A stretch of DNA of 64,000 nt from Candidatus Omnitrophota bacterium (GTDB taxonomy: Bacteria; Omnitrophota; Gorgyraeia; Zapsychrales; JANLHA01), in contig JAKLFA010000002.1 in the NCBI GenBank assembly GCA_022711395.1, positions 195,864 to 259,863 of the forward strand, in the 5' to 3' direction. Below the pieces are notes generated by a model. The model saw nothing but the letters and a program-made list of their open reading frames with translations. It was not told where the DNA came from and searched no databases. A program made the translations under genes and the position numbers. Below, in pieces: positions 32,788-51,431 of the stretch (the first letter of the stretch is position 1; each line of letters begins with the position of its first letter).

Positions 32788-34191
32788 TTAAGGGTTCTTA
32801 TGGGAGTCCGCAAGACGGCATTTTAAAAGGTGCGGAGTCGCATCATGGATTTTGACAGAGAGTGTTTCTCCCAGTCGCAGTTTCCCTATTTCTGAAGTTT
32901 TTGCGGCGATCTGGGTCCGCTTATTATGAATTGTGCGTCCTTCCACCGCATTTGGCCTTATGTTGTCGATGAGGCTCTCAAGCGTTTTTCCGATCATGGC
33001 CTGATTGCGCTGCAGGGCAAATTTTTGTTGGAGATCATTGAGGAGCAAAATCCGCTCAGTTTTCACCTTTTCAGGGACATCATTTTTGTAATCGCGTTCG
33101 GCCTTGGTTAACTTACGCGGAGAATATTTAAAAATAAAAGCGGAGTCGTAGCCCACTTTGTTGTAAACATCGACCGTGTCTTTGAACTGTTCATCGGTTT
33201 CGGTCGGAAATCCCACAATGATATCCGTGGTGATGGCGATTTCGGGACAGGCGGCGCGCAGTTTATCCACGATTGTCAGATAGTGTTCTTTCGTGTAGGG
33301 ACGGTTCTTCTTTTTAAGGACTTCATTACTGCCAGCCTGCAGCGGCAGATGAATGTGTTTGCAGAGTTTTGGGTGACGGGCGATCAGTTCGATCAATTCA
33401 TCCGCAACGTCTTTGGGGTGCGGCGATGTGAACCACACGCGTTTGACTCCCTCCACATCGCAAACCTGCCTCACAAGGTCCGGGAAACGTGTGTCTTTGT
33501 AGCTGTAGGAGTTCACATTCTGCCCGAGGAGTGTGACCTGGGCGAAACCCTCTTTGACCAGCTTGCGTGTTTCATTGACGATTCCTTTGGGTGAACGGCT
33601 GCGTTCTCTCCCGCGGGTGTAGGGCACCACACAGTAACTGCAGAAATTATTGCACCCGCGCATGATGGCGATCCAGGCATTGGCCGCGCTTTCACGGTTG
33701 GGATAAATGTCCTCATAGGTCTCGGTATCGGAAAGCTGGATGTCGAAGGATTTTTCCTTTCCGGCCTTTTGGATCAGGTCAGGGAGCTTTTTATAGGAGT
33801 CCGGGCCGACGATCAGGTCCAGGTCCAAATGCGGGTCGCTGATGAGTTCCTCGCGCAAATTGGTCGCCATGCAGCCCAGGATGCCGAAGATCGCGGGAAC
33901 GCCCTGCCGGTCATGACGGATCCGGTGAATGAGTTCGAATATTTTGCGGTTGGCGTTCTCCCGCACCGAGCAGGTGTTAAGAAGGATCACGTCGGCGTCC
34001 TGTTCGCTGTCCGTAAACGTAAACCCCTTCTCCGCCAGGATCGACCGGATGAGCTCGGTGTCATACTCGTTCATTTGACATCCGAAGGTGACCAAAAGTA
34101 TGCGTTTTCCTGCTGAACCGGCAGGTAACTTCTCTTGGTCTTTTCCGTCGGAATCGCCGCTTTGCCCATCGTTTCGCATTTTTTCAGACAT
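32788..34191 (-). CDS. miaB: tRNA-2-methylthio-N6-dimethylallyladenosine synthase (methylthiotransferase family)
   Basis: 467 aa; MTTase N-domain FGCQMNEYD...NTCSVRE, radical SAM CNNFCSYC, C-terminal TRAM domain. The start is uncertain: the low-complexity N-terminus overlaps the recombinase gene. Confidence 0.85.
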   Translation of the reverse strand: MSEKMRNDGQSGDSDGKDQEKLPAGSAGKRILLVTFGCQMNEYDTELIRSILAEKGFTFTDSEQDADVILLNTCSVRENANRKIFELIHRIRHDRQGVPAIFGILGCMATNLREELISDPHLDLDLIVGPDSYKKLPDLIQKAGKEKSFDIQLSDTETYEDIYPNRESAANAWIAIMRGCNNFCSYCVVPYTRGRERSRSPKGIVNETRKLVKEGFAQVTLLGQNVNSYSYKDTRFPDLVRQVCDVEGVKRVWFTSPHPKDVADELIELIARHPKLCKHIHLPLQAGSNEVLKKKNRPYTKEHYLTIVDKLRAACPEIAITTDIIVGFPTETDEQFKDTVDVYNKVGYDSAFIFKYSPRKLTKAERDYKNDVPEKVKTERILLLNDLQQKFALQRNQAMIGKTLESLIDNIRPNAVEGRTIHNKRTQIAAKTSEIGKLRLGETLSVKIHDATPHLLKCRLADSHKNP

Positions 34192-35777
34192 TTCATCCCC
34201 TCTTCATAACAAATTTTCCAAGGCTCGTTAATATCAACCTTGACTATCTCCTGATTTTGAATGTAGACCGCCCTAAAAATAATCCGCATGAACGTCTTGA
34301 CCAGATAGTCCCTCTGCTCGTCCTTCGGATTACTGCGCAGGCGAACCAAGAAATCCTGCGTGGCCTTGACCAGATTAACCGAATTGCGACGCTCAAGCAC
34401 CTTTAACTGGATCGCCTTAACGTCCTGCTTTAACTTTTTCTCCTCGTTACGCAAAAGATCAGCGCGCTCTTTGTAGATATCGGCGTTGATCTTATCCTCC
34501 GAGAAAACCTCATACAGCACCTTCTGCTTCTCGATATTCTTGCCAAGCGCCTTCTCCTTCGCGTCCAGCTCGTCAATAAGATGCTGTTCCGGTTCGGTCG
34601 CGGTCATCTTGATCACGTCACCCAACTCCTCGATCACGTGAAGGTTTTTGCTGATGATATCAATAATATCCCAGACCTGCTTATTGACAGCGTCCGCCGT
34701 CACCGACTTATTACCGCATTTGACGTAAGACACGCCCACAGACGAACAACAATACCACGGCCTGCGCGCTTTCGTGCGATGATTGGCCGTTAGCGTCAAG
34801 CCCCGGTAATTCCGTCCGCAAAGGTTACACTTTAACACGCCGGACAAGTGATACACATTATTCCTGAACCGCACAACAGCATTCGTGCGATTTGTAGCCA
34901 GCCGCTTTTGCGCGGCATCAAACGTCTCTTGCGTGATGATGGACTCATGAGCGTTCGGCACCTCGATGATCTTTGACGGATCATTATGGACGTAACGATA
35001 TCCCTTGCCCTCGCCGTTCCTTGTCTTGGTCTTCATATCGTAATGCTTACGATTCCAGACGAGCGTGCCTAAATAAGTTTTATTGCGCAAAATATCGGAA
35101 ATAAACTTGCCGTAAAATCGTCCGCCCTGTCTTGATGGAATACCCAAGTGATAATAATGCCCGGCTATCTGCGCGGTGCTCTTACCGCCAAGATAGAGCG
35201 TAAAAATATCTTTAACGATCCTCGCCTCATCGGGATTCACTTCAAGCTTCTTGGCTTCTTTATTATAGCGGTAGCCATACGGCGCGTAGCGGGCTCCCTG
35301 CCAGTGGCCTTTCTTGACACCAACAATCATGCCCGGGAAAACACGCTCAACCAGACGATTGCGCTCAAACTCGGCGCAACTGCCGAGCATCTGAATCGCC
35401 ATCTTACCGGCGCTCGACGTTGTATCGAACGGCTCGGTCGCTGACTTATAGCCAATACCGAGTGCCTCAAATTCCTCAAGTAACCCCAACAGATCTTTAA
35501 GCCGACGGCTCAAGCGATCCTGTTTATATACCATGACCAGATCGAATTGCTTATTGCGAGCATCCAGCAATAACCGTTTAAGCGCCGGGCGATCCATATT
35601 CCCGCCGGAATACCCGTCATCCATATAAACGTCTCTGCCCGACATTGTGCAAATAACATCCCAGCCGAAATTCTTCGCATATTGCAAAAGATAATTTCTC
35701 TGCACCTCCAGCGAAAAGCCTTCGCGCGCCTGATCCTCTGTGCTAACTCTTGTGTATAATGCTACCTTCATTGTCAT
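34071..35777 (-). CDS. large serine recombinase (integrase)
   Basis: 568 aa; resolvase catalytic domain VALYTRVSTEDQ (nucleophile Ser), recombinase domain, Cys-rich zinc ribbon (CNLCGRN...CCSSVGVSYVKCGNKS) and coiled-coil C-terminal region. Confidence 0.85.
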   Translation of the reverse strand: MTMKVALYTRVSTEDQAREGFSLEVQRNYLLQYAKNFGWDVICTMSGRDVYMDDGYSGGNMDRPALKRLLLDARNKQFDLVMVYKQDRLSRRLKDLLGLLEEFEALGIGYKSATEPFDTTSSAGKMAIQMLGSCAEFERNRLVERVFPGMIVGVKKGHWQGARYAPYGYRYNKEAKKLEVNPDEARIVKDIFTLYLGGKSTAQIAGHYYHLGIPSRQGGRFYGKFISDILRNKTYLGTLVWNRKHYDMKTKTRNGEGKGYRYVHNDPSKIIEVPNAHESIITQETFDAAQKRLATNRTNAVVRFRNNVYHLSGVLKCNLCGRNYRGLTLTANHRTKARRPWYCCSSVGVSYVKCGNKSVTADAVNKQVWDIIDIISKNLHVIEELGDVIKMTATEPEQHLIDELDAKEKALGKNIEKQKVLYEVFSEDKINADIYKERADLLRNEEKKLKQDVKAIQLKVLERRNSVNLVKATQDFLVRLRSNPKDEQRDYLVKTFMRIIFRAVYIQNQEIVKVDINEPWKICYEEGMKCLKKCETMGKAAIPTEKTKRSYLPVQQENAYFWSPSDVK

Positions 35778-37389: not shown

Positions 37390-37665
37390 CGTCGACTACC
37401 CTACTTTTTCTAAGCGCTCTTTATGTGCCTCTACGGAGCTTTTTCTCTCTCTTTTTCTTTCTTGGAAAAAGAAAGAAACGACATTCACAACATTCACAAA
37501 CCACATAACCTCTTGTGGATTATGCGGATAATCCGTGACCAGCGTTGTGAACGTAGCCCCTCGACAGTCACAATGGTCACGCCTTTTAATACGGCCTCGT
37601 GTCGTCTTCTTCACAGAATCCAGCCCCTTGTTCACGTTCGTTCACGCCTTCGTTCACACTGTTTT
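37390..37665. repeat. array of GTTCAC-type iterons (P4 ori/crr type-I-iteron-like TGTTCACC) overlapping the 3' end of the primase gene
   Basis: CGTTGTGAACGT occurs twice (37391 and 37543), ATTCACAACATTCACAA once, and TTGTTCACGTTCGTTCACGCCTTCGTTCACA (three GTTCAC in 32 bp at 37630-37662). Confidence 0.5.
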
Positions 37666-39961
37666 CAAAAAGCGAATTACCCTTCACCTTGCGTAAAATA
37701 ACCAGCTTCCTGCCTGTCCCGCCCTCCCGTTTTTCAGGCCGCAAAATATCGATGCCCACACTGCGCATGACCGGAGCGATACGCATAAGTTCTGAACCAA
37801 GCGCTCGGGCATTGCCGGGTATGGTCTTATCAAAACCCGTTTCCGGCTGAATGCACTCAAGAAGCGTGGTCGCTGATCCCTGCCACTCTCCTCCGTTTGA
37901 TTCCACAAGATAAACCAGCCGCTGGGCGAAGGTGCTCTCCTCGGCAGTGTCCTCCCATTTGTGATCAACGGATTGCTGATACCGCTTAAAGAACTCCTCC
38001 CGGGAAAAGCCTAAATACTCAGCCAGTGCCGCGCCCCACTGCGCGAAGTCCGACATCCGGAAACGCTCATGGCCGGACACGCCGTCAATAACCGCCATGG
38101 CATTTGAAATAGCCGAGAAGAATCCGCCGAGAATGCCGGGAAGCGAAGCCCGCCATTCATAAGCGATAACCTTCTCCGGACGGGTTTCTCTTAGGATTGG
38201 GATATCGAAGATAATCGAGCGGTCTAACAAGTCCGGGCGGCAAATAGAACTGCCGATCCCATTAAGAACAAAACACCGGCGATAAGTCCGGATGAACTCC
38301 TCATCATTGGTGTAAAGCGAACGCTTCATATCGCCTTCGCCAGTCACAGCCCGGCAGAGAAAATCGCTGAACCATTCGGACACCCGGGAAAGATTGTCAA
38401 AATTATTCACCCAGTGCTTGTCCGCGATCATCTGTGCCTGCTCCAAATCCTTGGGCACGGAAATGGACATCACCTTGGAAGGATCGCACAGACTTTTAAT
38501 GAGGCGTGAGTTATTAGATTTGCCTGTTCCCTGCTCGCCGATCTGCACCGGTATGACATGAGGAATATCGGGAATAAAGAACGTCGCGATAGCCATCATA
38601 AAAAGACAGGCATCGTTTTTATTGATATTGCAAAACTCCAAGAGCTTTTTGGGGTCAGAACCTTTGACCGGCAAAACCTGCTCTGCCTGATGCGAGTATC
38701 GCTTGAATATCGGCGGCAAGAAAACGACTTCCCAGCCGTCTTTGGTAATAACTATCCCCCGCCAGTCTTGGGTAGTGAGATCATAATAAATAGCCCCGTT
38801 ATGCCAGCCGACACGGTTATAAAGCTCGACCTGTCGCCCACTTTCGCACTTGGCTTCAATCTGGACTTTCGCTTGCTTTAAGGCTTCACTTCCCGGAGGA
38901 TGGCCAAAATCATGACGGTAGCGCATCGCGCAGTAATTCCTGAAACGGGAACTGCTGGTCTGGCAGACTTCAAGATGTTTATCAAACGGCAGAACAATAT
39001 ACGGATTCCCCTGCTGGTCGCGCAGATACTCGCTGATCGTCTCTTCGCAGTCGCGGGTAATGATCTCGCCTTGGGTGAGCTTCTTCTCTTTCGGGAATCC
39101 TGACGCTTCAAACACATTTTTGACATCTTTAACGGCCTTATCAATAACGCTTTGCCCATATGTCCTGCCATCACCGAAATGCTTCTCATCCCACTTTGGC
39201 CGCATGAGCCCGGACTGACGAAAAAGCAAATCCATCAGCCCGTCATCCTTTCCAGTCCAAAAGGCCAGCTTATTGCAAAGTGCCAAGTCAGCTTCTGATT
39301 GAGATGGATATGATTCCTGCCACCTGCCTTCATAAAGGGCGAAGAACGCCTCGCTGTCATTGCTCTTTTTTATCTTGCCAAGTATGCTTCGGACGCTCTT
39401 CTTTTCTTCCTCGGCCTGCTTCAATTCTTCAAACAGCTTCAAGAGCTCGTCTTCTCTTGCTTCGATCGTTCTTTTGCACCCCGGCACGATATCGCCTGTG
39501 ATCGTAAAGAACCTGCCTCCGGAATACATCTCAACACCAAGCTCGCTAAACTTGCGATCGTTGGGAAGCTCGCCTTTACAAAGGATATGAATACCGGTGC
39601 CGCTGGGAGAGAATTCGGTATAACTGTCCAGTACCGATATGATCTTTCGGGCATACGATGCGATAACGCCATTCATCACGCATCCGTCAATATCAATGCC
39701 GACGGTAGGCTTGGTTATTGCAAAGCCGATCGCGTCAAGGCCCAACGCTAAAGACCGGGCGATGACCTCACCAAGCGGCCGCCATGTTTTTGGATCATTG
39801 GACTTGGCATTGCCGCCGGTTGCGACATTGACCGGGACCTTTTTCGCCTTCTTGTCTTTTTGGGGGATGAATTTGAACCCAACGCCTATTGGCGGGCTCA
39901 TGATTTCCTGCGGGATATTCTTCTCTTCCCACCTCTTCACTTTTCTTCTCTCTTCGCTCAT
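37586..39961 (-). CDS. primase-helicase (prim-pol domain plus D5_N plus SF3 helicase; P4 alpha-like)
   Basis: 791 aa; archaeo-eukaryotic prim-pol motifs VGIDIDGC ... SPSGTGIHILCKG and SF3 Walker A GEQGTGKSN. The architecture is typical of phage/plasmid P4-family primases. Confidence 0.8.
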   Translation of the reverse strand: MSEERRKVKRWEEKNIPQEIMSPPIGVGFKFIPQKDKKAKKVPVNVATGGNAKSNDPKTWRPLGEVIARSLALGLDAIGFAITKPTVGIDIDGCVMNGVIASYARKIISVLDSYTEFSPSGTGIHILCKGELPNDRKFSELGVEMYSGGRFFTITGDIVPGCKRTIEAREDELLKLFEELKQAEEEKKSVRSILGKIKKSNDSEAFFALYEGRWQESYPSQSEADLALCNKLAFWTGKDDGLMDLLFRQSGLMRPKWDEKHFGDGRTYGQSVIDKAVKDVKNVFEASGFPKEKKLTQGEIITRDCEETISEYLRDQQGNPYIVLPFDKHLEVCQTSSSRFRNYCAMRYRHDFGHPPGSEALKQAKVQIEAKCESGRQVELYNRVGWHNGAIYYDLTTQDWRGIVITKDGWEVVFLPPIFKRYSHQAEQVLPVKGSDPKKLLEFCNINKNDACLFMMAIATFFIPDIPHVIPVQIGEQGTGKSNNSRLIKSLCDPSKVMSISVPKDLEQAQMIADKHWVNNFDNLSRVSEWFSDFLCRAVTGEGDMKRSLYTNDEEFIRTYRRCFVLNGIGSSICRPDLLDRSIIFDIPILRETRPEKVIAYEWRASLPGILGGFFSAISNAMAVIDGVSGHERFRMSDFAQWGAALAEYLGFSREEFFKRYQQSVDHKWEDTAEESTFAQRLVYLVESNGGEWQGSATTLLECIQPETGFDKTIPGNARALGSELMRIAPVMRSVGIDILRPEKREGGTGRKLVILRKVKGNSLFENSVNEGVNEREQGAGFCEEDDTRPY

Positions 39962-40229: not shown

Positions 40230-40720
40230 CACCTGTTTGCCTGTGAAATTTCGCATCTTTTTACTGCCCTCATATATGAACACGCAAAAAATTCGAAAGT
40301 GTAACACCCCTAAAGCATATATTCCGGTTTTTCCTGTAAAGTGTCGGATCATTACCCTCCCACAGGTGATTACAGGAAAATTCCGAAAGTGTCGAAGCCT
40401 TCAAGGCGTATATACAACTTTTTTTGCCAAACTGTCCCACCCCTAAGGCGTATATTCCGGATTTTTCCGGAAAGTGTCGGAACTTTCTTTCCCCTCATAG
40501 GTGATTACGCAAAATTTTCAAAAGTGTCGAAGCTTTTGGCCAACTTTTTTGCCCTCCCATAGGTGATTACAGGAAAATTCCGAAAGTGTCGGGGCTCTCT
40601 ACCATAGTTATTACGTTTTTAGGGTCAAAATTTCGCACCCTTACCGTAGTTATATGTATTCCGGGCCAAGATTTCGCACCCCTCAGCTATGAACACGCAC
40701 TATTTTTTAAAGTGTCGAAG
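40230..40720. repeat. dense non-coding iteron array (putative replication origin/operator region)
   Basis: Seven AAAGTGTCG(R) cores embedded in two alternating ~42-bp repeat types (CTAARGCRTATATTCCGGnTTTTyCnGnAAAGTGTCGGA and CCCAYAGGTGATTACrsrAAAwTTyCrAAAGTGTCGrrGC). Also TATGAACACGCA twice and ATTTCGCACCC three times. No ORF. Confidence 0.6.
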
Positions 40721-40721
40721 C

Positions 40722-40781
40722 CCAAAAATAAAAAAGCCACTTCCGGCCAATTGACTGGAAATGGCTTTTCCCGCACAGGCG
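40722..40781 (-). terminator. strong rho-independent terminator (minus strand)
   Basis: Minus-strand RNA AAAAGCCAUUUCC-loop-GGAAGUGGCUUUU (13-bp stem, one G-U) followed by UUUUUUAUUUUU. Confidence 0.65.
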
Positions 40782-40818
40782 GAACAGTGATCAGCTGTCC
40801 CGTAAGTCTATTTTTATT

Positions 40819-41030
40819 TTATAACAGCGCCAATCTTTCTCAAGATGGTCGTTACCAAAATATGGAATAAATCGCGCTTACGATTCCATCATATGACAAC
40901 GCCAATCTTTCTCAAGGGGGTCATTACTACAAAATAGCAAATCGCCCTCTCACGCTTTCATCATATAACAGCGCGAATCTTTCTCAAGGGGGTCTTTACT
41001 ACAGAATAGTAATAATTATTTGGGGTGTTT
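40819..41030. repeat. three tandem 72-bp direct repeats, non-coding
   Basis: Period of exactly 72 nt (AATCT anchors at 40832, 40904, 40976); unit is about TATRACArCGCsAATCTTTCTCAAGrkGGTCdTTACyACArAATAGnAA.... It lies between the PD-(D/E)xK gene stop and the terminator. Confidence 0.6.
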
Positions 41031-41142
41031 TGGAGGGCTAAAAACAAAAAATCGCCCAGGAGAGCGACAAATGAACTATTAAGTATTACTTACAAGTTGA
41101 ACTATTAGGAATTACCGAATAGTTCCCACATTCTCATCTATC

Positions 41143-42399
41143 CTATGCCTTTATTACCAGATCGATAAATGGCTTCAAAGATAAAAAGGCCTGTTCGAAT
41201 AGGTCAATGGCTTTAGGCGTATGAATCACTTTTGATTCCTGATATGGGATTTCGATGCCGATCTCAAACTGAATGTTTGACTTTTTGCCGGTCATTACCG
41301 TATATGTGGTCTCCAGCCATTCTGGTTGATATTTTTGAGATTTGCTATACCCATCGCGAATGACAGTGCGCAAATCATAACGCAACACAGCATCTTCGAT
41401 AGGAGGACTGCTTTGGCTGGGATAGTGCCGCTGGAGTACTTTCGCATAAGGCTGAACAGCTGGATCAATATGTATAACCTTATCGACTTCTCGTGCTATT
41501 GAAAATATCAATTCATTAAAAGAATCCTGCCCTTGTCCAAAAACTAATTTTCTGATTGATCGTTTAACTGCATTTGGCAAAGTAATCAGCGCAACTGCTT
41601 TATCAGCATGAATCACTACGGTTAAATGTGGATACTTCGTAAAATTTTGTGCATCCTTTGAAACCTTGAGCCGCATAAAATCCCATACGCTCCAGCCTCT
41701 ATACGCTTTTATTGCCCCTCGGCCGGGCAATGCGGGGTCAACCCCCAATTTATGGATGCTTTGTTTGCTTTTCAATTCATCCATGAGAAGCCCCAAAACT
41801 CTCTTGGCTTCCAGATAATTAAATTGATAATCCTTGCTAAACGGAATGCCAGCAAAGCGAGTTAGCGTTCCTTCTTTAAGATAAGCCTTTTGAACCATTT
41901 TTGCCTCCGCAACTTCCATATACGTCAAAATCTGCTTAGCCCAGTCAGAATGCGCAGACTGAACTGTTAGCCATTCATAGAGCCGATTCCATGGCAATCC
42001 CACGACATTTGTAGGCAAGCTCTTTAAATTATCTTCCGTAGCAAGCACCAATAACGTGCTATCAGGGAATCCGCGCCGACTTGCAATCTTAAGATGCCTA
42101 TCAAGCTGATGTAAATCAACCCGTGAAGCGACTTTGCTTTCAATCAGCAATGCCCATCCATCATCTGTAAAGATCCATGCATCTGGTAAACCGCGGTCGC
42201 CAACTTCAGCTTCATCTAACTCTATATCGCCCGGCAAAGTCTGCTCAACAATGTGCACTCTTGACGCCTTGCCGAGTCGCTTGCCAGTAACCCAAAGAAT
42301 AAACGCTTTTAGTAAACGTTGATCCTTGGTCAGACCAGAAACAAGTGCGTGAGTGAGCCGATTTTCTGGCTGTGAATATTGATCAAATATATGCCTCAT
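41143..42399 (-). CDS. PD-(D/E)xK nuclease-fold protein with unknown C-terminal domain (candidate defence effector)
   Basis: 418 aa; the N-terminal roughly 130 aa carry E...PDAWIFTDDGWALLIESKV (PD ... ExK); the remainder has no recognisable motif. Last gene of the hsdR-hsdMS operon. Confidence 0.55.
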   Translation of the reverse strand: MRHIFDQYSQPENRLTHALVSGLTKDQRLLKAFILWVTGKRLGKASRVHIVEQTLPGDIELDEAEVGDRGLPDAWIFTDDGWALLIESKVASRVDLHQLDRHLKIASRRGFPDSTLLVLATEDNLKSLPTNVVGLPWNRLYEWLTVQSAHSDWAKQILTYMEVAEAKMVQKAYLKEGTLTRFAGIPFSKDYQFNYLEAKRVLGLLMDELKSKQSIHKLGVDPALPGRGAIKAYRGWSVWDFMRLKVSKDAQNFTKYPHLTVVIHADKAVALITLPNAVKRSIRKLVFGQGQDSFNELIFSIAREVDKVIHIDPAVQPYAKVLQRHYPSQSSPPIEDAVLRYDLRTVIRDGYSKSQKYQPEWLETTYTVMTGKKSNIQFEIGIEIPYQESKVIHTPKAIDLFEQAFLSLKPFIDLVIKA

Positions 42400-42411
42400 T
42401 TGGAACCTGAT

Positions 42412-43125
42412 TTATTCTGTTTCTGCGACGTATGCTTCGTTGTATTTTTCTGCGATCTTGCGCAACAATCTTTTCTTTCCTTTTGCCTTCCCAAGGAATG
42501 ACTCAAAATCAAAAGCTGAACATGCTTTCAGATCTTGTTTCGAAAAATAATTCTTTCTCAATAGACAATCTTCAAAATGCTGATAGTCATAATCCTCTTC
42601 TTGCAATGCTCTCTCAAAAATAGACAACAATACAGTCGACATTCGTTGCTGAATTTCTTCGATATATGACAAGATTTCGTTAATTTTATCGTCGATCTGT
42701 TCTTGCGAATTCAAGTAGACATTACCATTAACGTGAGCACTATCATTGCGAAGCTTGATAATCTCTTTGTATTTGCCGATCCTATCCTGCAATCCGATGA
42801 GCCTTAAAAAACGAATGAATTGAGATTCACCAATAACCCAAAAGCCAAATGGATCGGACACTTTGGTCAGATCGGACTCATGTCGATCAATACAACCAAT
42901 CAAGCACTTTGAGAAATCTTCGTGCCGAACTGTTTTAATCTTCCAAACACAAAAATACGTAAAAAGCATAAACAGCATGTGATACGCAATGAACGCGAAC
43001 TGATATTTTCCGTTTTCATAATTACATTTAAATGAATCCCATAAAAAAAGAAGGTATTCTTGCTCTTTCTCGCTCCGAAAATAGCTTGGCAAATATTCTA
43101 AGATATGTTGGGCGTCATCGATCAC
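42412..43125 (-). CDS. HEPN-like (Rx4H) / DUF4145-like protein, candidate abortive-infection component
   Basis: 237 aa; KLRNDSAHVNG contains an R-x4-H motif as in HEPN/DUF4145 proteins often linked to Type I RM loci. Hydrophobic stretch FAFIAYHMLFMLFTYFCVW; start overlaps the hsdMS stop (ATGA). Confidence 0.5.
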   Translation of the reverse strand: MIDDAQHILEYLPSYFRSEKEQEYLLFLWDSFKCNYENGKYQFAFIAYHMLFMLFTYFCVWKIKTVRHEDFSKCLIGCIDRHESDLTKVSDPFGFWVIGESQFIRFLRLIGLQDRIGKYKEIIKLRNDSAHVNGNVYLNSQEQIDDKINEILSYIEEIQQRMSTVLLSIFERALQEEDYDYQHFEDCLLRKNYFSKQDLKACSAFDFESFLGKAKGKKRLLRKIAEKYNEAYVAETE

Positions 43126-45623
43126 TTTTCACCCCAAATCTTAGAAATACGCTCACAAATTTTTGTTGAATATATGTCTATAATTCTTCGATTCGAATTA
43201 ACAAGCTGTTCCGTTTCATCTAAAAAAGTCACTACTTTTTTTTGCGTATCAATATCGGGAAGTAAAAACTTTAGCTTATAAGCGTCATTACGATTGAGAC
43301 CAGGTACACCAGCTTGAGTATTAACCTTATCGAGCCGCATTGATAGCATTTGATAATAAGCGAATTTCAGATCTAAAGAATCTATCTTGTTGATTTTGAC
43401 ATAAAAAGTGGTATCAATTGGGTATCCTGATTTTTCTGAGTATGTAACAGCACCCGCTGTTCCTTTTCTCCCCACTACAACAAAAGGCCCATCCACTAAA
43501 TATTCATTATGCCAGCCGACTATGCCATTAGACCCAAAAACGGGATATTCACCAGCGATTCTATTTTCCTCTTTAAGTGGCTTCCCGTATTCCAAAGACA
43601 GAACATCTCCTAATTCTACAACTGGCCATTCGGGATCAGAGTCAATACGCGGATTATAATTATCAGTAACCTGACGAGCCCCCGCAACAATCTTTTGATA
43701 ACTACTTAATTCTTCAACTATTTCTTCCTGTACAGTCATCGACGGGAGTGGGATTTTGATTTCTTTGACCTCTAGGCTAATACCTCCGATAATTCCTTTA
43801 ATATACGGCTTCAATTTTTGTTGGAAATCATCCGACCTGATGATTGCATAAAGATATTCCGGAAGGATATTCTGCCGAGCCCTTAATATAAAAACATGTT
43901 CATTTACAGCGGCGGCTTCGTTGCAGTCAAAATATCCAGTCTTTCCAGTTGTTGCGCCATCTTTGACAATTAGAACATCTCCTTTTTTTAGAATACCTTT
44001 CTTCATCGATTGGAAATGTTCATTAGTGACATATTTCATTTTTTCAAACAGGATATCACCATGTTCATTTATCTGCTCGCCCCCGATGCTCGGAATGCCC
44101 GACGAAACCGCGCCTCCTTTTTGTCGTGATCCGCTTTCTATATCAACAACATCTCCTAATTCAACCATCGGCCACTTAACGTTAACATGAGTTTCCTTTA
44201 ACCCATATCGTTCGCCACTCAAGTTGTATGTGCCGCCTTTTGCGATCTTGCTTTTTTCAATTACCTTTATTTTTTGCCATGCGTCATCTTTAAATTTGCC
44301 TTCTGAAATAACGGCCTTCTTGTATTCCATGATTGCGCGATATGCATCCGGCAAGTCATTTTCTTGTATCGGACGCCTCTGCGCGCCAAGATCAAAGCCA
44401 TCGTTTTCGATCTTCACGAATAAAAGATTATCCGTTTTCTTAACAAGCTGTTTGTCGAGCCACAATATGGACGTCTTAACGCCAGAGTATGGATTAAAAA
44501 GTCCAGCTGGAAGAGAGATAACTCCAACCAGATACTCTTCAACAAGCATTTTTCTAAGCTGCCTATAGGCTGTATCGTTTTGAAATATTATTCCTTCTGG
44601 AACAATGATTGCGGCACGCCCCATTGAAGTAAGATGCTCAGCCATATAATCCACAAAAAGCACCTCTGAGCGCTTGGATTGGACAGAAAAACGCTTATGT
44701 GGTTTTATCCCACCTTTAGGCGACATGAATGGAGGGTTTGCGAGAATGACCTCTGCTTTTTCATCCCATTTGTCGTCTCGCGTTAATGTGTCATACTCAT
44801 AAATTTTTGGGTTGCTAAAACCATGGAGATACATATTCACCAAAGACAATCTAACCATATCCGGAGAAATGTCATATCCTGAAATATTATCAACAAGCCG
44901 TTTGCGATCGTCAGAGGTTAATTTTTCCCCACGGTATCCTTTGCCATTAATCGTGATCTCCGAAAGCTTGATATTTTGAAGCTCAAATGGCTTTGGATCA
45001 TTCTTAGGATCATAGTTCTTCGAGTTATGCTTAATAATATATTTGTATGCGGATATCAAAAACCCGCCCGTTCCGCATGCTGGATCCAATATCTTTTCGT
45101 TCTTTTTGGGCTCCAGAATCTCTACCATAAAATCAATGATATTTCGCGGCGTTCTGAATTGCCCGGCCTCGCCTTGACTTCCTAATATCGAAAGCAAATA
45201 TTCAAAAGCATCGCCAAGACGCTCAGAGTGATCGTATTCAAACTCATTAATTTCTTTTAGAAAACTTTTAAGCGTTTCTGGGTCCCGATATGGCAAATAC
45301 GCGTTCTTAAAGATATCCCTAAATAACTGCGGGACATTGGGGTTTTGATTCATATTCTGTATTGCTTCGCCATACAGATTTACAATGTCATAGCCGCTTT
45401 TTTGAGGTGAAAAAACGTTACGCCACGAATAATCTTTAAATTTATCGGTAAAGAATTTTGCCTTACCGCGAGGCAATAGCTCTGCCTGCCTGTCCATGTC
45501 ATCCATAAACTTATAAATTAGGGCAATTGTAATTTGCTCAACTTGAGATTTAGGATCAGGCAATTTACCGACTAAAATGTCTCGCGCAGTATTTATTCGC
45601 CTTTTTGTAATGTCATCTAGCAT
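43122..45623 (-). CDS. hsdMS: Type I restriction-modification HsdM-HsdS fusion (N6-adenine methyltransferase plus two target-recognition domains)
   Basis: 833 aa; methylase motif I LDPACGTGGFL and motif IV NPPF; C-terminal half has two TRD-like repeats (WPMVELGDVVDIESG... and WPVVELGDVLSLEYG...). Confidence 0.8.
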   Translation of the reverse strand: MLDDITKRRINTARDILVGKLPDPKSQVEQITIALIYKFMDDMDRQAELLPRGKAKFFTDKFKDYSWRNVFSPQKSGYDIVNLYGEAIQNMNQNPNVPQLFRDIFKNAYLPYRDPETLKSFLKEINEFEYDHSERLGDAFEYLLSILGSQGEAGQFRTPRNIIDFMVEILEPKKNEKILDPACGTGGFLISAYKYIIKHNSKNYDPKNDPKPFELQNIKLSEITINGKGYRGEKLTSDDRKRLVDNISGYDISPDMVRLSLVNMYLHGFSNPKIYEYDTLTRDDKWDEKAEVILANPPFMSPKGGIKPHKRFSVQSKRSEVLFVDYMAEHLTSMGRAAIIVPEGIIFQNDTAYRQLRKMLVEEYLVGVISLPAGLFNPYSGVKTSILWLDKQLVKKTDNLLFVKIENDGFDLGAQRRPIQENDLPDAYRAIMEYKKAVISEGKFKDDAWQKIKVIEKSKIAKGGTYNLSGERYGLKETHVNVKWPMVELGDVVDIESGSRQKGGAVSSGIPSIGGEQINEHGDILFEKMKYVTNEHFQSMKKGILKKGDVLIVKDGATTGKTGYFDCNEAAAVNEHVFILRARQNILPEYLYAIIRSDDFQQKLKPYIKGIIGGISLEVKEIKIPLPSMTVQEEIVEELSSYQKIVAGARQVTDNYNPRIDSDPEWPVVELGDVLSLEYGKPLKEENRIAGEYPVFGSNGIVGWHNEYLVDGPFVVVGRKGTAGAVTYSEKSGYPIDTTFYVKINKIDSLDLKFAYYQMLSMRLDKVNTQAGVPGLNRNDAYKLKFLLPDIDTQKKVVTFLDETEQLVNSNRRIIDIYSTKICERISKIWGEK

Positions 45624-45637
45624 GATAATCCCCTCTT

Positions 45638-48160
45638 TTAAATAAACGTGTTTAATGGCACGTAATCTTTGACGTATTCAATAACCGGATCCATCCACCC
45701 GTCTAAATCATGCAAATCTTGCATGTTAAAACGCGGATTCGTGGCAAGTGAACTGAATTCACCTGTCTCCATTATCTGCTGGATTTCCTTATCCAAAATA
45801 TATGCCTTCATGAAATGCCCGATAATTGATACAAACTCCGGCTCCGGGTGATATATGGAAATAAATTTCTGAACTTCTTCTTCAAGGAGCTCGTCTTTAG
45901 TCTTAAATTTTTTGATTTTGCCAAAAATCTTTTCAAGGATTTCTTTCAGGCTCAATCTGCGGTCGAGTTTGATAGATTTTCTCAGTTTATCCAGATTGAA
46001 ATAATCCTCGGGCTTATCAAAAACTTTGTCTTTGATATACGCCTCGGCTTCTTCGTACTTTCCCTCATAAATCTTATTCTTAATGTGCTCATCATGGCTT
46101 ACGATTTCCTCGAACTTCTCGAAGAACTTTCTGTCAATTCGCATCCCTTCATAGCCTATGGGCGTCTCATCGATCCCAACAAGCGGATCAGGATTCACGT
46201 TTTCATACTCTCTCGGATTGGGTGGCGGAAAAGGCCCGGGCCCCGTAGTTCCGGGAGTTGTGGGCGGTAACGCAATAACCTCGTCATAGGGATATTTTTC
46301 TTCAAAATATTCACAGTTCGCAAAGAAATCAAACAGCTTAAATCGCTCTTTTTCTTTTTGAACTTCGTCTATGCCCCCGATACCATCTGGCTGTTTATAA
46401 GAAAACGTGTATTTTCGGGTTCCTCGACCTTTCATTTGAATAAAATCGGTGGGCGAGAAAATAGGGCGCATTAAACACAAATTGAGGATATCTTGACAAT
46501 CATATCCTGTGGTCATCATTCCAACCGTTACACACACCCGCGTCTTTGATGAATTATACCCATCCAAGAATTTCGAATTACCGCTAAGGCGGTTATTGGC
46601 GAAATTGATGGCCATTTGTTGAGAACCATCGATATTTGATGTAACCTGTACCGCAAAATCAGAGTTATATTTTTCGGGGAAATATTTATGTGCAAGCTCA
46701 TTTAAAATTTGCGTAATCTTTGAAGCGTGATTTTGGCTTACACAGAAACAAATCGATTTTCCTATTTCATTTGTAAGGGGATCCTTGAGAGCATTGTCCA
46801 AGAATGTCTTACACAGGGACAAATTTGTTTCTTCCGAAAACAGCCTTCGTTCGAAATCTTTTCCGAAAAAGATCTTCTTTTCAGACTCCCCGTCCTCGTT
46901 CTCTATTAATACAGCGTACCCTTCTTCAGAAAGCAACTGGGTTGTAATTTCTGTTCTTGCATCAACCACGATGGGATTGATTAAGTACCCGTCTTTCACT
47001 CCATCTAAAAGGGTATAACGAAAAGTGGGATCGGTATCTTTACATCCGAAAGTCGTATACGTATCTAAGAGCTGGCGCCTTTCCAGCGCCCTTGGGTCAT
47101 GGTGCGCCAGCTGTTGCTCATCAACGTTTCGCAAATAGTTTTTCGGTGTTGCCGTTAATCCTAATTTATAGCCCGTAAAATATTCGAAAACTGCCCGGCT
47201 ATTCCCACCTATTGACCTATGAGCCTCATCAGATATGACAAGATCAAAGTCTGTTGGGCAAAATAAATCCTTGTATTTATTTTTAAATAACAATGACTGA
47301 ACCGTCGAAACTACAATCTCCGCTTTTGTCCAATCATCCTTGTTCTCTTTAAAAATGACACATTTAAAGTCTTTCTTGAGGTAGGCTACAAAATTCTTCC
47401 ATGCTTGATCTTCCAGCTCGAGGCGATCAACCAAAAACAACACCCTTTTTGCGTTACTTGTTCTTAAAAACAACTTAATCACGGCCGCCGAAACAAGCGT
47501 TTTTCCTGTCCCAGTAGCCATCTCAAATAAAAATCTGTCTTTCCCTTGAGAAACCGCTTCTTGTATCGAATGTATAGCCTTTAACTGGTACTTTCTCAAA
47601 AAACGAAGACCGTTATCTTCAACAAAAGATTTTCTTTGGCTGGGATCGACCCACCGTGGATCTTTTGAATAATTCTGGTTTTGAGTTAAAACTATATAAT
47701 CCTCATCAATCTGTTCTCGAACGATTGCGTCGGGATTAGGCTTAAAAGATTTCTTATGCGTTATAGAGGCCGCTGTAGGGAATGTTGTTATAACATACGG
47801 ATTGCCCGATTCTATGTCCCAGAAGTAATGAAGATTTCCATTTGAAAGAATAATAAAACGAACATTTAAAGAATTGGCATACTGCCGAGCTTGCTCTTTA
47901 CCATCCAAAGGATTTTTGCTTTCACTCTTAGCTTCAAGCACACAAAGAGGAAAAGAATTTTTATCCATCAAAAGATAATCAGCGTACCCTTTGCTGGCTT
48001 TTTCAAAGTCCTCCCCCAGCTCATTAATGGCGATTTCCGTGATTGGCGTATTTACCTCCAGCCGAATGTTTGCTTTACCATTCTGATCGTCAAAAAAACG
48101 CCAACCGGAATCTTCTAGTAACTTATTGATCTTGATTCGTGCTTTAGCTTCTTTCGCCAT
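45638..48160 (-). CDS. hsdR: Type I restriction enzyme R subunit (HsdR family, short EcoEI-like form)
   Basis: 840 aa; N-terminal PD-(D/E)xK nuclease (D...CVLEAKSE), SF2 helicase motif I MATGTGKT and motif II ISDEAH, C-terminal helical domain. Confidence 0.8.
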   Translation of the reverse strand: MAKEAKARIKINKLLEDSGWRFFDDQNGKANIRLEVNTPITEIAINELGEDFEKASKGYADYLLMDKNSFPLCVLEAKSESKNPLDGKEQARQYANSLNVRFIILSNGNLHYFWDIESGNPYVITTFPTAASITHKKSFKPNPDAIVREQIDEDYIVLTQNQNYSKDPRWVDPSQRKSFVEDNGLRFLRKYQLKAIHSIQEAVSQGKDRFLFEMATGTGKTLVSAAVIKLFLRTSNAKRVLFLVDRLELEDQAWKNFVAYLKKDFKCVIFKENKDDWTKAEIVVSTVQSLLFKNKYKDLFCPTDFDLVISDEAHRSIGGNSRAVFEYFTGYKLGLTATPKNYLRNVDEQQLAHHDPRALERRQLLDTYTTFGCKDTDPTFRYTLLDGVKDGYLINPIVVDARTEITTQLLSEEGYAVLIENEDGESEKKIFFGKDFERRLFSEETNLSLCKTFLDNALKDPLTNEIGKSICFCVSQNHASKITQILNELAHKYFPEKYNSDFAVQVTSNIDGSQQMAINFANNRLSGNSKFLDGYNSSKTRVCVTVGMMTTGYDCQDILNLCLMRPIFSPTDFIQMKGRGTRKYTFSYKQPDGIGGIDEVQKEKERFKLFDFFANCEYFEEKYPYDEVIALPPTTPGTTGPGPFPPPNPREYENVNPDPLVGIDETPIGYEGMRIDRKFFEKFEEIVSHDEHIKNKIYEGKYEEAEAYIKDKVFDKPEDYFNLDKLRKSIKLDRRLSLKEILEKIFGKIKKFKTKDELLEEEVQKFISIYHPEPEFVSIIGHFMKAYILDKEIQQIMETGEFSSLATNPRFNMQDLHDLDGWMDPVIEYVKDYVPLNTFI

Positions 48161-48177: not shown

Positions 48178-48885
48178 TTATTTGTTTAAAATCCCTATGT
48201 AATCCTCAAAACTATAATAATTACTGCCGCCAACTATTATGTGATCCAGTAGCCTTACTTGCATGGTCTTGCCAGCTTCGAACAATTGTTTTGTGAAGTC
48301 CTTATCAGGTGTGCTTGGTGTTGTGTCGCCAGATGGATGGTTATGAACGCAGACAATCGACTTGGCGAATTTCTGTAATGCGGCATGAATGATCTCCCGG
48401 ACAATCGGGAACGCCTGATCAACAGTACCGACCGAAGCGTCTGAAATATCAATGATGCGGTTCTTGTTATCAAGATAAATAACCTTGAACACCTCTGTTT
48501 TAAGGTCGCGGAGCTGGGGCAAAACAATATCCACAACGTCCTTGGCAGAGGCGATCTTCTGCTTCCCGGTGGACACATCGTCCTGTCGATAGCGCCGCCC
48601 GATTTCAAGCGCGGCCTGAATATGGGCGATCTTGGCCCCGCCCAAACCCTTGAATTCCTTCCAGTCGCGGGCGTCGGTGTGGGCCATACTCCTGAATGAA
48701 CCGAACTTTGCGAGGATCTTGCGGGAAAGGTCGATGGCGCTTGTGCCTTTGGAGCCAGTGCGAAGCAGAATGGCTAGAAGCTCTGAATTACTCAAAGCTC
48801 CCGCGCCCTTCTTGAGGAGTTTCTCTCTCGGCCTGTCATCCTCCGGCCAAGTCTTTATGCCTGTAGCTTTTCTTTCCTTCACCAT
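48178..48885 (-). CDS. radC: RadC-like JAB-domain protein
   Basis: 235 aa; LSNSELLAILLRTG HhH N-terminus and JAMM-like HNHPSGDTTPSTPD motif. Confidence 0.8.
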   Translation of the reverse strand: MVKERKATGIKTWPEDDRPREKLLKKGAGALSNSELLAILLRTGSKGTSAIDLSRKILAKFGSFRSMAHTDARDWKEFKGLGGAKIAHIQAALEIGRRYRQDDVSTGKQKIASAKDVVDIVLPQLRDLKTEVFKVIYLDNKNRIIDISDASVGTVDQAFPIVREIIHAALQKFAKSIVCVHNHPSGDTTPSTPDKDFTKQLFEAGKTMQVRLLDHIIVGGSNYYSFEDYIGILNK

Positions 48886-49446: not shown

Positions 49447-50469
49447 TCATATTTGATCTACCAATTCCTGAATCTGTTCCGGTGACGGTAATTGTTTCTT
49501 TAATTCTTTAGGCAATTTCGTTGTTATTTTATATTGCGCTACCGCGATCGGCTTGTTGCTTTCTTTTAGCGCGTATTCCACAATCGTCCGTTTCTTCTCC
49601 TTGCAAACGATAATCCCTATGGATGGATTTTCATATTTTTCTTTCATCTCGGCATCCAAGGCGGCAAGATAAAATTGCATCTTGCCAACATACTCCGGTT
49701 TAAACTCGCCGATCTTAAGCTCTATAGCCACCAGACAGCGTAATCTGCGATGATATAGCAGTATGTCGATAAAATATTCATTGCCCTCAATCTCAAGCCG
49801 GTACTGATTGCCCATGAAGGCAAACGCGCCACCCATTTCGATAAGGAAACGATTAACCTTAGCGACAATCGCGCGTTCAAGCTCCAACTCGCTATGCTCC
49901 TCTCCTAATTCGAGAAAGCCAAAAGAATACTCGTCTTTAACAGCCAGTTTTGCCTGCTTTTCTATCTTGGCCGGTAGGGTTTTGCCAAAATTAGTCTGGT
50001 TAACCATCGTTTTTTCGTACGTCTTATTTTCAACCTGATGGACAAGCACCTCTTTTGTCCAACCCATGCGTTTTGTCATGCGAATATAAAATTCACGCTC
50101 AAGGTCATCCTTACACTTCTCCATAACAACAATATTATGTGACCAGCTAATTTCTTGCACCAATGGTGCAAGTTTTGTGCTTTTCTCATAGCGAAGATAA
50201 AATTTACGCATTCTCCAGAGATTATCCTTTGAATATCCGGATACTCCCGGGAATTCCTTCTGTAAATCCTGCGCAAGGTTTTCAACCACAGATTTTCCCC
50301 AATTATGTCTCCCTTGCCTATCAACAATCTTTTTCCCGAGATCCCAATAAAGGCTTATAAGTACGCTGTTAACATTTTTCAAAGCATCATACTGAGCGGA
50401 TCTAATCCGCTCTTTAACTTCTCGCAAGAAATCCGAGTAATGTTTGTTATGAACCAAGCTCTGTGTCAT
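49447..50469 (-). CDS. YhcG-like PDDEXK nuclease (DUF1016 family)
   Basis: About 340 aa from MTQSLVHNKHYSDFLREVKERIRSAQYDALKNVN...LYWDLGKKI, which matches the DUF1016/YhcG N-terminal pattern. C-terminal restriction-endonuclease-like fold (IDILLYH...LVAIELKIGEFKPEYVGKMQFY). Confidence 0.7.
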   Translation of the reverse strand: MTQSLVHNKHYSDFLREVKERIRSAQYDALKNVNSVLISLYWDLGKKIVDRQGRHNWGKSVVENLAQDLQKEFPGVSGYSKDNLWRMRKFYLRYEKSTKLAPLVQEISWSHNIVVMEKCKDDLEREFYIRMTKRMGWTKEVLVHQVENKTYEKTMVNQTNFGKTLPAKIEKQAKLAVKDEYSFGFLELGEEHSELELERAIVAKVNRFLIEMGGAFAFMGNQYRLEIEGNEYFIDILLYHRRLRCLVAIELKIGEFKPEYVGKMQFYLAALDAEMKEKYENPSIGIIVCKEKKRTIVEYALKESNKPIAVAQYKITTKLPKELKKQLPSPEQIQELVDQI

Positions 50470-50485
50470 CTTTCTCCTCCAAAAT

Positions 50486-50671
50486 CTATTTTTTGGCCTT
50501 TGAGCGCTTCGTCTTGTATTCCTCAATCAACTCGCGCATGATCGCCGCGATGGAGGCTTCCTTGTCCTGCTTTTGACGCTCAAGAGCCTCCTGCTTTAAA
50601 AAGAAATAAAGGTCGTCCGGAATATCCAGCGTCGTCCGGTGCATTTTTTCATTGTTTCTCGTTACTCGCAT
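50486..50671 (-). CDS. ribbon-helix-helix (CopG/antitoxin-like) small DNA-binding protein
   Basis: 61 aa; TTLDIPDDLYFFLKQEA beta-strand/helix pattern of RHH proteins. Confidence 0.45.
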   Translation of the reverse strand: MRVTRNNEKMHRTTLDIPDDLYFFLKQEALERQKQDKEASIAAIMRELIEEYKTKRSKAKK

Positions 50672-50684
50672 GGTATTAACCTCG

Positions 50685-51431
50685 CTATTTAATGACTTTC
50701 CAGTTATTGAGGAAATATGTTACCTCGTGTTCCCGCCTGCCGAGATAGAGCTTATCAGCGACGAACTTCAAGGTCATACGATATGAATTCCCCTTGTTGA
50801 TCTCAAGAATCGCCCTCTCGTGCAGTTTCTGCTCTAAGACAAGATATGGGAATATCACAAAATCGGTTTTACTCTCGTCACGCAAAACACAGACGTAAAA
50901 AATATTGCTTGAATTAAACCGCTCAAACGATGTTCGTCGCACATCAAAAACGTAGGTATTATAACTATTGAGATTAGCGGTTTTAACCTGAATCTCAAAA
51001 CGTTTGTTATCCTTTATCGCCACGATATCAATGCCGGTATCCACGCTCATGATGCTGGCATTAAAACCCCTGAACAGAAGCTCACTGCAGACACGGAATT
51101 CTCCGCCTTTGCCGATAAAACCCGTCTCGACGGAATAGGTGTCCCCCTGCGCGGGAAGCGGAGCCGATTTTACTGGCACAGGTTCTTTATAATCCGGATT
51201 GATCGAAAAAGTGGCAGGCGATACTCTTTTGAATATTGACTTATCCCCGTAACGCTTTATATCCACAACGATTTGAGCGTTCATGGTCGCTTCGGGTGTC
51301 GCGCCTTGCGTCTCAAATAATCCTTCCTCTAACGCCTTGCGGGTGATCTCCCGATAATGAAGCGGTTCCTTGAACTTCTTGAGGATAGTAATCGCGGCCT
51401 GCTTAAAGGTATTCATGCCATATCCTTTCAA
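50685..51431 (-). CDS. HARE-HTH (Mrr-N-like winged helix) plus PD-(D/E)xK restriction-endonuclease-like protein
   Basis: 248 aa; N-terminal FKQAAITILKKFKEPLHYREITRKALEEGL... winged HTH; C-terminal GIDIVAIKDNKRFEIQVKT (D ... ExK). Confidence 0.55.
   Translation of the reverse strand: MKGYGMNTFKQAAITILKKFKEPLHYREITRKALEEGLFETQGATPEATMNAQIVVDIKRYGDKSIFKRVSPATFSINPDYKEPVPVKSAPLPAQGDTYSVETGFIGKGGEFRVCSELLFRGFNASIMSVDTGIDIVAIKDNKRFEIQVKTANLNSYNTYVFDVRRTSFERFNSSNIFYVCVLRDESKTDFVIFPYLVLEQKLHERAILEINKGNSYRMTLKFVADKLYLGRREHEVTYFLNNWKVIK

Follow-up and report, generated by a model that had tools for sequence, protein, structure and literature searches.

The 64,000-nucleotide (nt) stretch of Candidatus Omnitrophota contig JAKLFA010000002.1 analyzed here, called the window below, carries a Type I restriction-modification (RM) operon followed on the same strand by two genes, X237 (237 amino acids, aa) and Y418 (418 aa). 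We consider it likely that these two genes have separate histories: X237 as the HEPN gene of the RM operon, encoding a candidate latent guard RNase, and Y418 as an independent cargo nuclease that would provide defense as a single gene. The original prediction, made from the sequence letters, had instead joined them into one uncharacterized two-gene module, an RNase-like and a DNase-like protein serving as an abortive-infection backup to the Type I system. What separates them is the gene neighborhood of each family, together with a break in DNA homology between the two genes.

Operon structure and the joint between X237 and Y418

All coordinates of the operon are window positions, and hsdR, hsdMS, X237, and Y418 are all minus-strand genes. 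The conserved trio begins with hsdR (45638..48160), which encodes an 840-aa EcoAI-like Type I restriction subunit with the Pfam domains ResIII, HSDR_N_2, and SWI2_SNF2; it matches the NCBIfam model restrict_EcoAI with E = 1.3e-72, which is under that model's cutoff. The second gene, hsdMS (43122..45623), encodes an 833-aa protein in which a Type I methyltransferase is fused to a specificity subunit that has two target-recognition domains (TRDs), as seen from Pfam N6_Mtase (4e-50) plus two Methylase_S stretches, and from PADLOC MTase_I (3e-95) and Specificity_I. X237 (42412..43125, GTG start) is the third gene, and Y418 (41143..42399) comes next, so the two reading frames stand directly after hsdMS on the same strand, as predicted. 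The hsdMS stop and the X237 start overlap by 4 nt, and Y418 starts 12 nt beyond the X237 stop; both distances agree with the original prediction, but the overlap reads GTGA and not ATGA, which occurs only in some relatives. Both are real genes, with homologues at E-values down to 1e-263 and 1e-155 for the two families.

A consensus scan of the minus strand found no terminator-like site between X237 and Y418. The first one downstream, a hairpin with a T-run at 41051..41068, lies about 75 nt past the Y418 stop and, on the basis of the consensus scan only, is the probable end of an hsdR-hsdMS-X237-Y418 transcript. Given the 4-nt overlap, the 12-nt gap, and the sole downstream hairpin after Y418, co-transcription of the four genes is plausible, and so is the predicted co-expression of X237 and Y418 with the RM operon.

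X237 is a conserved, translationally coupled third gene of a Type I-like operon consisting of an EcoAI-like hsdR, a fused hsdM-hsdS, and a HEPN gene. This could be followed in 12 independent homologue loci with 26–84% identity to X237. In 12/12 of these contexts the homologue lies directly 3' of a fused hsdMS of about 815–860 aa, usually with a 4-nt overlap; where the genes overlap, the junction reads GTGA or ATGA, and elsewhere about 4 nt separate them. Orthologous hsdR genes precede hsdMS in most of them. The order hsdR-hsdMS-X, at 36–84% X237 identity, is present in L006 and L007 (40–42%), a JGI contig (37%), L088/L089 and L091 (83–84%, the same as in L092), L090 (51%), L095, and L100, and the hsdR orthologues of L006, L007, L088–L091, L095, and L100 are 52–90% identical to that of the window. 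L095 is plasmid pPZ02 of Paracoccus zhejiangensis, where the homologue (36.5%) is annotated as a hypothetical protein, and L100 is an IMG/VR locus (37%). The remote relatives in L096 and L101 (26–29%) still have an hsdMS-like gene directly upstream. The two-protein Type I layout, a fused HsdM-HsdS with two TRDs plus an EcoAI-like HsdR, is kept in all X237 contexts, with hsdMS products of 815–858 aa.

No Y418 homologue was found near the X237 homologues in any of these 12 contexts, and none of the 80 genome loci that contain a Y418 homologue has an X237-family gene or this type of hsdR/hsdMS nearby. The DNA itself is a mosaic at the same place. In blastn comparisons of the window with sister elements, the RadC-like gene upstream of hsdR, hsdR itself, and the methylase part of hsdMS show about 76–80% identity. 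The TRD region (~44150–43160) lacks homology, which suggests specificity-domain swapping; homology then returns through the 3' end of hsdMS and X237, and stops at 42398–42441. By relative, all of them bearing the trio, it ends at 42398 (L088), 42421 (L092), 42422 (L090), and 42441 (L091). Homology to Y418 relatives starts at 42401 (L093) or 42400 (L094) and ends near 41155. The ends on the trio side and the starts on the Y418 side therefore place the boundary of two histories in or next to the 12-nt spacer (42400..42411, minus strand), which either includes the point where the RM trio module meets the Y418 cassette or lies right beside it. Because synteny and homology both break here, we reject the pair as a module.

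The position just 3' of the HEPN gene is a variable hotspot for defense cargo, and Y418 occupies it in the window, outside the conserved trio. In L091 (6224–10965) the X237 homologue is followed, in this order, by a GmrSD/NsnA-like gene, the Pycsar genes PycC and PycTM, and Gabija GajA (E = 2e-210). L092 (1030–3033) has a GmrSD-like gene followed by a HARE-HTH nuclease-like gene, L090 (6961–12032) an Old-family nuclease and further ATPases, and L088/L089 (L088:8784–11667) two unannotated genes and a patatin-type effector. The slot genes also include a DUF4062-HATPase gene resembling those associated with pAgo, and unannotated genes of 201, 400, and 423 aa that may be further defense genes.

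Folds, motifs, and families of the two proteins

The motif KLRNDSAHV, which had led to the prediction of an Rx4H, HEPN-like protein, is present in X237. The 44 homologues align over their full length, and R126, N127, H131, N133, and G134 are invariant among them, giving the signature RNxxxHxNG. The AlphaFold2 (AF2) model is a confident all-helical bundle (pLDDT 91, pTM 0.89) with the up-down alpha-helical arrangement of the HEPN superfamily, and its top fold matches are mostly HEPN domains, with MtlR-type non-catalytic HEPN proteins among them. Motif and model together identify X237 as a HEPN protein with an intact RNxxxH site. At the family level the best Pfam match is HEPN_RiboL-PSP (PF18735); X237 itself scores 19.1 bits against it (E = 1.3e-3), over the motif region only (residues 112–160), and does not reach the gathering score of 28.4 bits. 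The same model matches 26/44 relatives at E < 1 (best 2e-6), and a few relatives match the Apea, Swt1, or MAE_28990 HEPN families. Judging from these matches, the X237 family is related to PF18735 and distinct from it, with N-terminal helices of its own in which K40, Q42, H49, and W61 are conserved. The predicted affinity to DUF4145 did not hold, as 0/44 family members have a DUF4145 match.

A profile search of 1.84 billion representatives returned 900 X237-family clusters at E ≤ 1e-3. Among the 150 best were 83 full-length clusters, and 82 of these keep R-[NDSTQ]-x3-H. Sequence-profile comparison of X237 with solved structures gave noise only, and PADLOC-DB v2.0.0 yielded weak Csx1/CARF-HEPN matches (E = 2e-3 to 5e-3) and no named defense system; neither NCBIfam nor PADLOC had a meaningful match for X237 or Y418. 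No ATPase domain was found in X237 with Pfam, NCBIfam, or PADLOC. Some distant members of the family carry C-terminal fusions: a TIR domain (P0220, P0303), double zinc ribbons (P0277), or an unannotated extension of about 540 aa (P0177). In the TIR-fused P0303 the catalytic His has apparently been lost.

The fold comparison also bore out the predicted nuclease domain of Y418. Across 47 homologues the PD…ExK residues D73, E87, and K89 are invariant, in agreement with the catalytic motif and the alpha-beta-beta-beta-alpha-beta core of the PD-(D/E)xK superfamily. Further invariant positions are E12, Q98, H102, and, in the C-terminal half, many polar residues, among them K199, R200, H258, Q323, D336, N375, and Q377. 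The AF2 model (pLDDT 88) has two domains and the Foldseek results are concordant with it: residues ~1–170 are modeled as a PDDEXK_4-like PD-(D/E)xK domain, and residues ~190–418, which the original prediction had called unrecognizable, as a YktB/DUF1054 fold. Pfam PDDEXK_4 (PF14281), listed as a family of unknown function (PMC3424549), has matches at E < 1 in 43/47 family members (best 1.6e-10), though none in Y418 of the window. Along with PDDEXK_4, the nearest relatives of the N-terminal domain are restriction-type PD-(D/E)xK nucleases (R.BspD6I, NucS, the FokI cleavage domain, Mrr), from which Y418 differs in lacking both a partner methyltransferase and any known DNA-recognition domain. The C-terminal domain shares its fold with YktB/DUF1054 (PDB 2a8e, 3mqz) and with 1yb3 from P. 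furiosus at 10–12% identity and with no sequence-profile match; Pfam DUF1054 matches 0/47 family members. DUF1054 proteins are stand-alone and not fused to a nuclease, whereas in Y418 the DUF1054-like fold is. Our literature search found no functional study of DUF1054. Searches of Y418 against PDB sequence profiles (E up to 1) and PADLOC-DB v2.0.0 (E up to 0.1) gave no match, and Foldseek found no solved structure that matches the whole two-domain architecture.

The Y418 family comprises at least 1000 full-length proteins with 42–94% identity. A scan of ~185,000 species genomes gave 187 matches, in Planctomycetota, Acidobacteriota, Proteobacteria, Nitrospirota, Chloroflexota, and others. Plasmid and phage collections contained no match, and IMG/VR contained three loci, all lacking X237. 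The nearest relatives beyond a near-identical strain (78% and 68% identity) have neither X237 nor hsdMS upstream. When open reading frames (ORFs) of at least 100 aa within 4 kb were clustered for ~80 loci, no conserved partner emerged; the biggest neighbor cluster covered only six loci, and the ~360-aa neighbors in L001 and L005 are mutually unrelated and have no Pfam match. With neither a conserved partner nor a recurrent methyltransferase neighbor, Y418 is a solitary nuclease, a feature that it shares with Type IV (modification-dependent) restriction enzymes. Defense and restriction genes that flank it include Type I HsdR (four loci), Mrr (four), and PLD (two), with single cases of Type ISP, DndE, Cse1, and NERD; other flanks in the 80-locus set are integrases and housekeeping genes. 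Homologues lie 3' of a DISARM-like cluster (L004), a Type I RM system (L005), and a HindI-type HsdR (L093), and inside a conjugative element with a type IV secretion system (T4SS; L001–L003). A same-strand upstream neighbor lies within 55 nt in 23/47 cases. Most likely, Y418 is a mobile gene in its own right that encodes a stand-alone, restriction-like nuclease and has a tendency to lie at the 3' ends of other operons.

Proposed roles and competing explanations

HEPN genes next to RM systems have been described before. At least 16 HEPN clades occur in conserved RM neighborhoods, and PrrC-like action has been proposed for them (Anantharaman et al., 2013, PMC3710099). PrrC itself is kept latent by EcoprrI and released when the T4 protein Stp inhibits restriction (PMC3710099). 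Like X237, PrrC is a HEPN-type Rx4-6H protein encoded in a Type I (Type Ic) RM operon (PMC3710099). However, PrrC has an N-terminal ABC ATPase, whereas X237 is a 237-aa protein without an ATPase and is therefore not a member of the PrrC family, working like it at best; X237 also follows a fused hsdMS, whose stop it overlaps, and has no sequence similarity to PrrC past the motif. The RM-linked HEPN clades (DUF4145, ApeA, and others; Anantharaman et al., 2013) resemble X237 as stand-alone HEPN genes in conserved RM neighborhoods, but the X237 family differs from these clades and from PF18735 in its dedicated link to fused-hsdMS systems and in its own N-terminal helices. AbiA (PDB 8oz7), a reverse-transcriptase-like polymerase of 597 aa that ends in a HEPN domain, has 13% identity to X237 and does not share its context. 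X237 is thus another member of the described class of RM-linked HEPN genes and nothing categorically new. A PrrC-like backup role for X237 is reasonable as a hypothesis and already in the literature (PMC3710099).

By analogy with PrrC-EcoprrI, X237 would be a latent, metal-independent endoribonuclease whose production keeps pace with that of the methylase/specificity subunit and which the RM complex keeps inactive. A phage anti-restriction factor that disables the RM enzyme would then allow X237 to cut host or phage RNA, as an abortive-infection backup. Y418, lying in the variable slot after the trio and probably read through from the RM promoter, would act as a single-gene, restriction-like defense nuclease, with its conserved C-terminal domain recognizing a substrate or signal. 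A latent guard RNase is the most likely function of X237, one that we put at somewhat less than an even chance, with a non-toxic accessory as its main rival. Taken as a whole, the fuller picture of a minimal, ATPase-less guard RNase coupled to fused HsdMS and firing on attack, beside a widespread single-gene defense nuclease with a YktB/DUF1054-fold sensor, is tentative and rather unlikely to be right in every part.

Several observations weigh against these assignments. X237 lacks the regulatory ABC ATPase of PrrC, so that its proposed latency mechanism is drawn entirely from analogy. Housekeeping genes flank many Y418 loci, conservation within the family is strong (42–50% identity across phyla), and Y418 has no match to any PADLOC model; given the flanks and the conservation, a defense role for Y418 is a matter of association only, and the strongest support for it is the slot that it shares with known defense systems in sister elements. 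Finally, the near-identical relatives P0001 and P0122 (90–94%, apparently the same 2.6-kb contig) keep X237 and Y418 together.

That last observation also speaks for the two-gene abortive-infection module of an RNase and a DNase. The genes are adjacent and probably co-transcribed in the window, and both proteins are nuclease-like. The expected conservation of the pair beside hsdR/hsdMS, however, is confined to these near-identical relatives: beyond the 12 X237 contexts and 80 Y418 genome loci described above, the three viral loci, L093, and L094 all lack X237, the DNA joint falls in the spacer, the two families differ greatly in size, and we found no fusion or cross-homology linking them. We regard such a module as most improbable, although a local functional interaction between X237 and Y418 in this lineage is conceivable. 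For X237 alone, a non-toxic role in the RM system in the manner of non-catalytic HEPN proteins like MtlR, for example as a subunit that binds RNA or nucleic acid, as an assembly factor, or as a regulator of restriction versus modification, would suit its strict, stoichiometric-style coupling to hsdMS, its lack of an antitoxin-like partner or ATPase regulator, and the MtlR-type proteins among its fold matches. Yet RNxxxH is invariant or nearly so over hundreds of representatives, while non-catalytic HEPN proteins usually lose the motif (PMC3710099), and the TIR fusions point to an effector role; we consider the accessory role quite unlikely. X237 as a Csx28-like, membrane-associated HEPN effector, whose helix would insert and cause depolarization instead of RNA cleavage, is very unlikely. 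The hydrophobic helix noted in the original prediction does exist (residues ~41–66), and in this clade the mean Kyte-Doolittle hydropathy of residues 43–61 is 1.73. For a membrane segment this is borderline, as the family median of the maximal 19-residue value is 1.53 and only 13/44 members reach at least 1.6; the segment also contains polar N, K, S, and T residues and an invariant His, and the AF2 model packs it as the second helix of the compact bundle (pLDDT ~96), where it aligns with the HEPN core.

Y418 could also be a nuclease of a mobile element or of DNA repair or recombination that stands beside the RM operon by chance and is no immune gene. The housekeeping flanks, the high conservation, and the missing PADLOC match would all fit, as would its presence within a conjugative T4SS element and the repair nuclease NucS among its fold matches. 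Set against this are the sporadic distribution of the family in species genomes, its recurrence at the 3' ends of Type I, Mrr, and DISARM loci, its near absence from phage and plasmid collections, and its place in a slot occupied elsewhere by Gabija, Pycsar, a GmrSD-like gene, and Old. On balance, a non-immune role is unlikely, and we retain single-gene defense as the preferred reading of Y418.

If the role proposed for X237 is true, the hsdR-hsdMS-HEPN trio would be a compact, ATPase-free example of an RM enzyme guarded by a latent RNase. Predictions of such guarding have existed for many HEPN clades since 2013, and demonstrations for very few. Y418 represents a large, conserved, unannotated nuclease family and is a reasonable candidate for single-gene defense, which, if true, would provide a first lead to the function of the YktB/DUF1054 fold. 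The slot after X237 could also be mined as a hotspot of defense cargo.

The host integrative element

The RM-Y418 block lies in a low-GC stretch (~0.40 vs. ~0.50) of an integrative element. Immediately upstream of hsdR is a gene for a 235-aa RadC-like JAB protein (48178..48885, minus strand; Pfam RadC at 1e-39, and UPF0758_N), and copies with 78–81% identity lie upstream of hsdR in L088–L091; in L088 and L090 a small XRE-type helix-turn-helix (HTH) gene stands ahead of it. The RadC-like gene appears to form part of one conserved backbone with the RM trio. Both integrative and plasmid elements carry the hsdR-hsdMS-HEPN operon, and an HTH-RadC pair usually precedes it. Further upstream in the same island are two more nuclease-like genes, a YhcG/DUF1016 (PDDEXK) gene (49447–50526) and a gene for a HARE-HTH protein that matches PDDEXK_5 weakly (50685–51431). 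The gene 3' of the GmrSD-like gene in L092 encodes a 37%-identical homologue of this HARE-HTH protein.

On the other side of Y418, the element encodes an NrS-1-type primase-polymerase (37586–39961) and a large serine recombinase (34071–35777). The listed recombinase ORF shares about 120 nt with the start, as listed, of a MiaB/RimO-like radical-SAM gene (32788–34191), and GC content returns to ~0.5 there; the integrative element probably has one of its ends here, with its insertion site in or beside that gene. An Rfam scan of the 33–53 kb part of the window found no RNA family. Between the Y418 terminator and the primase-polymerase gene are repeat arrays (40259–41027), with five repeats of about 50 nt (40259–40721) and three tandem repeats of 72 nt (40812–41027), each of the latter containing a promoter-like TTGAGA-16-TATGAT on the minus strand. 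These arrays look like iterons, a replication origin, or a regulatory region of the element.

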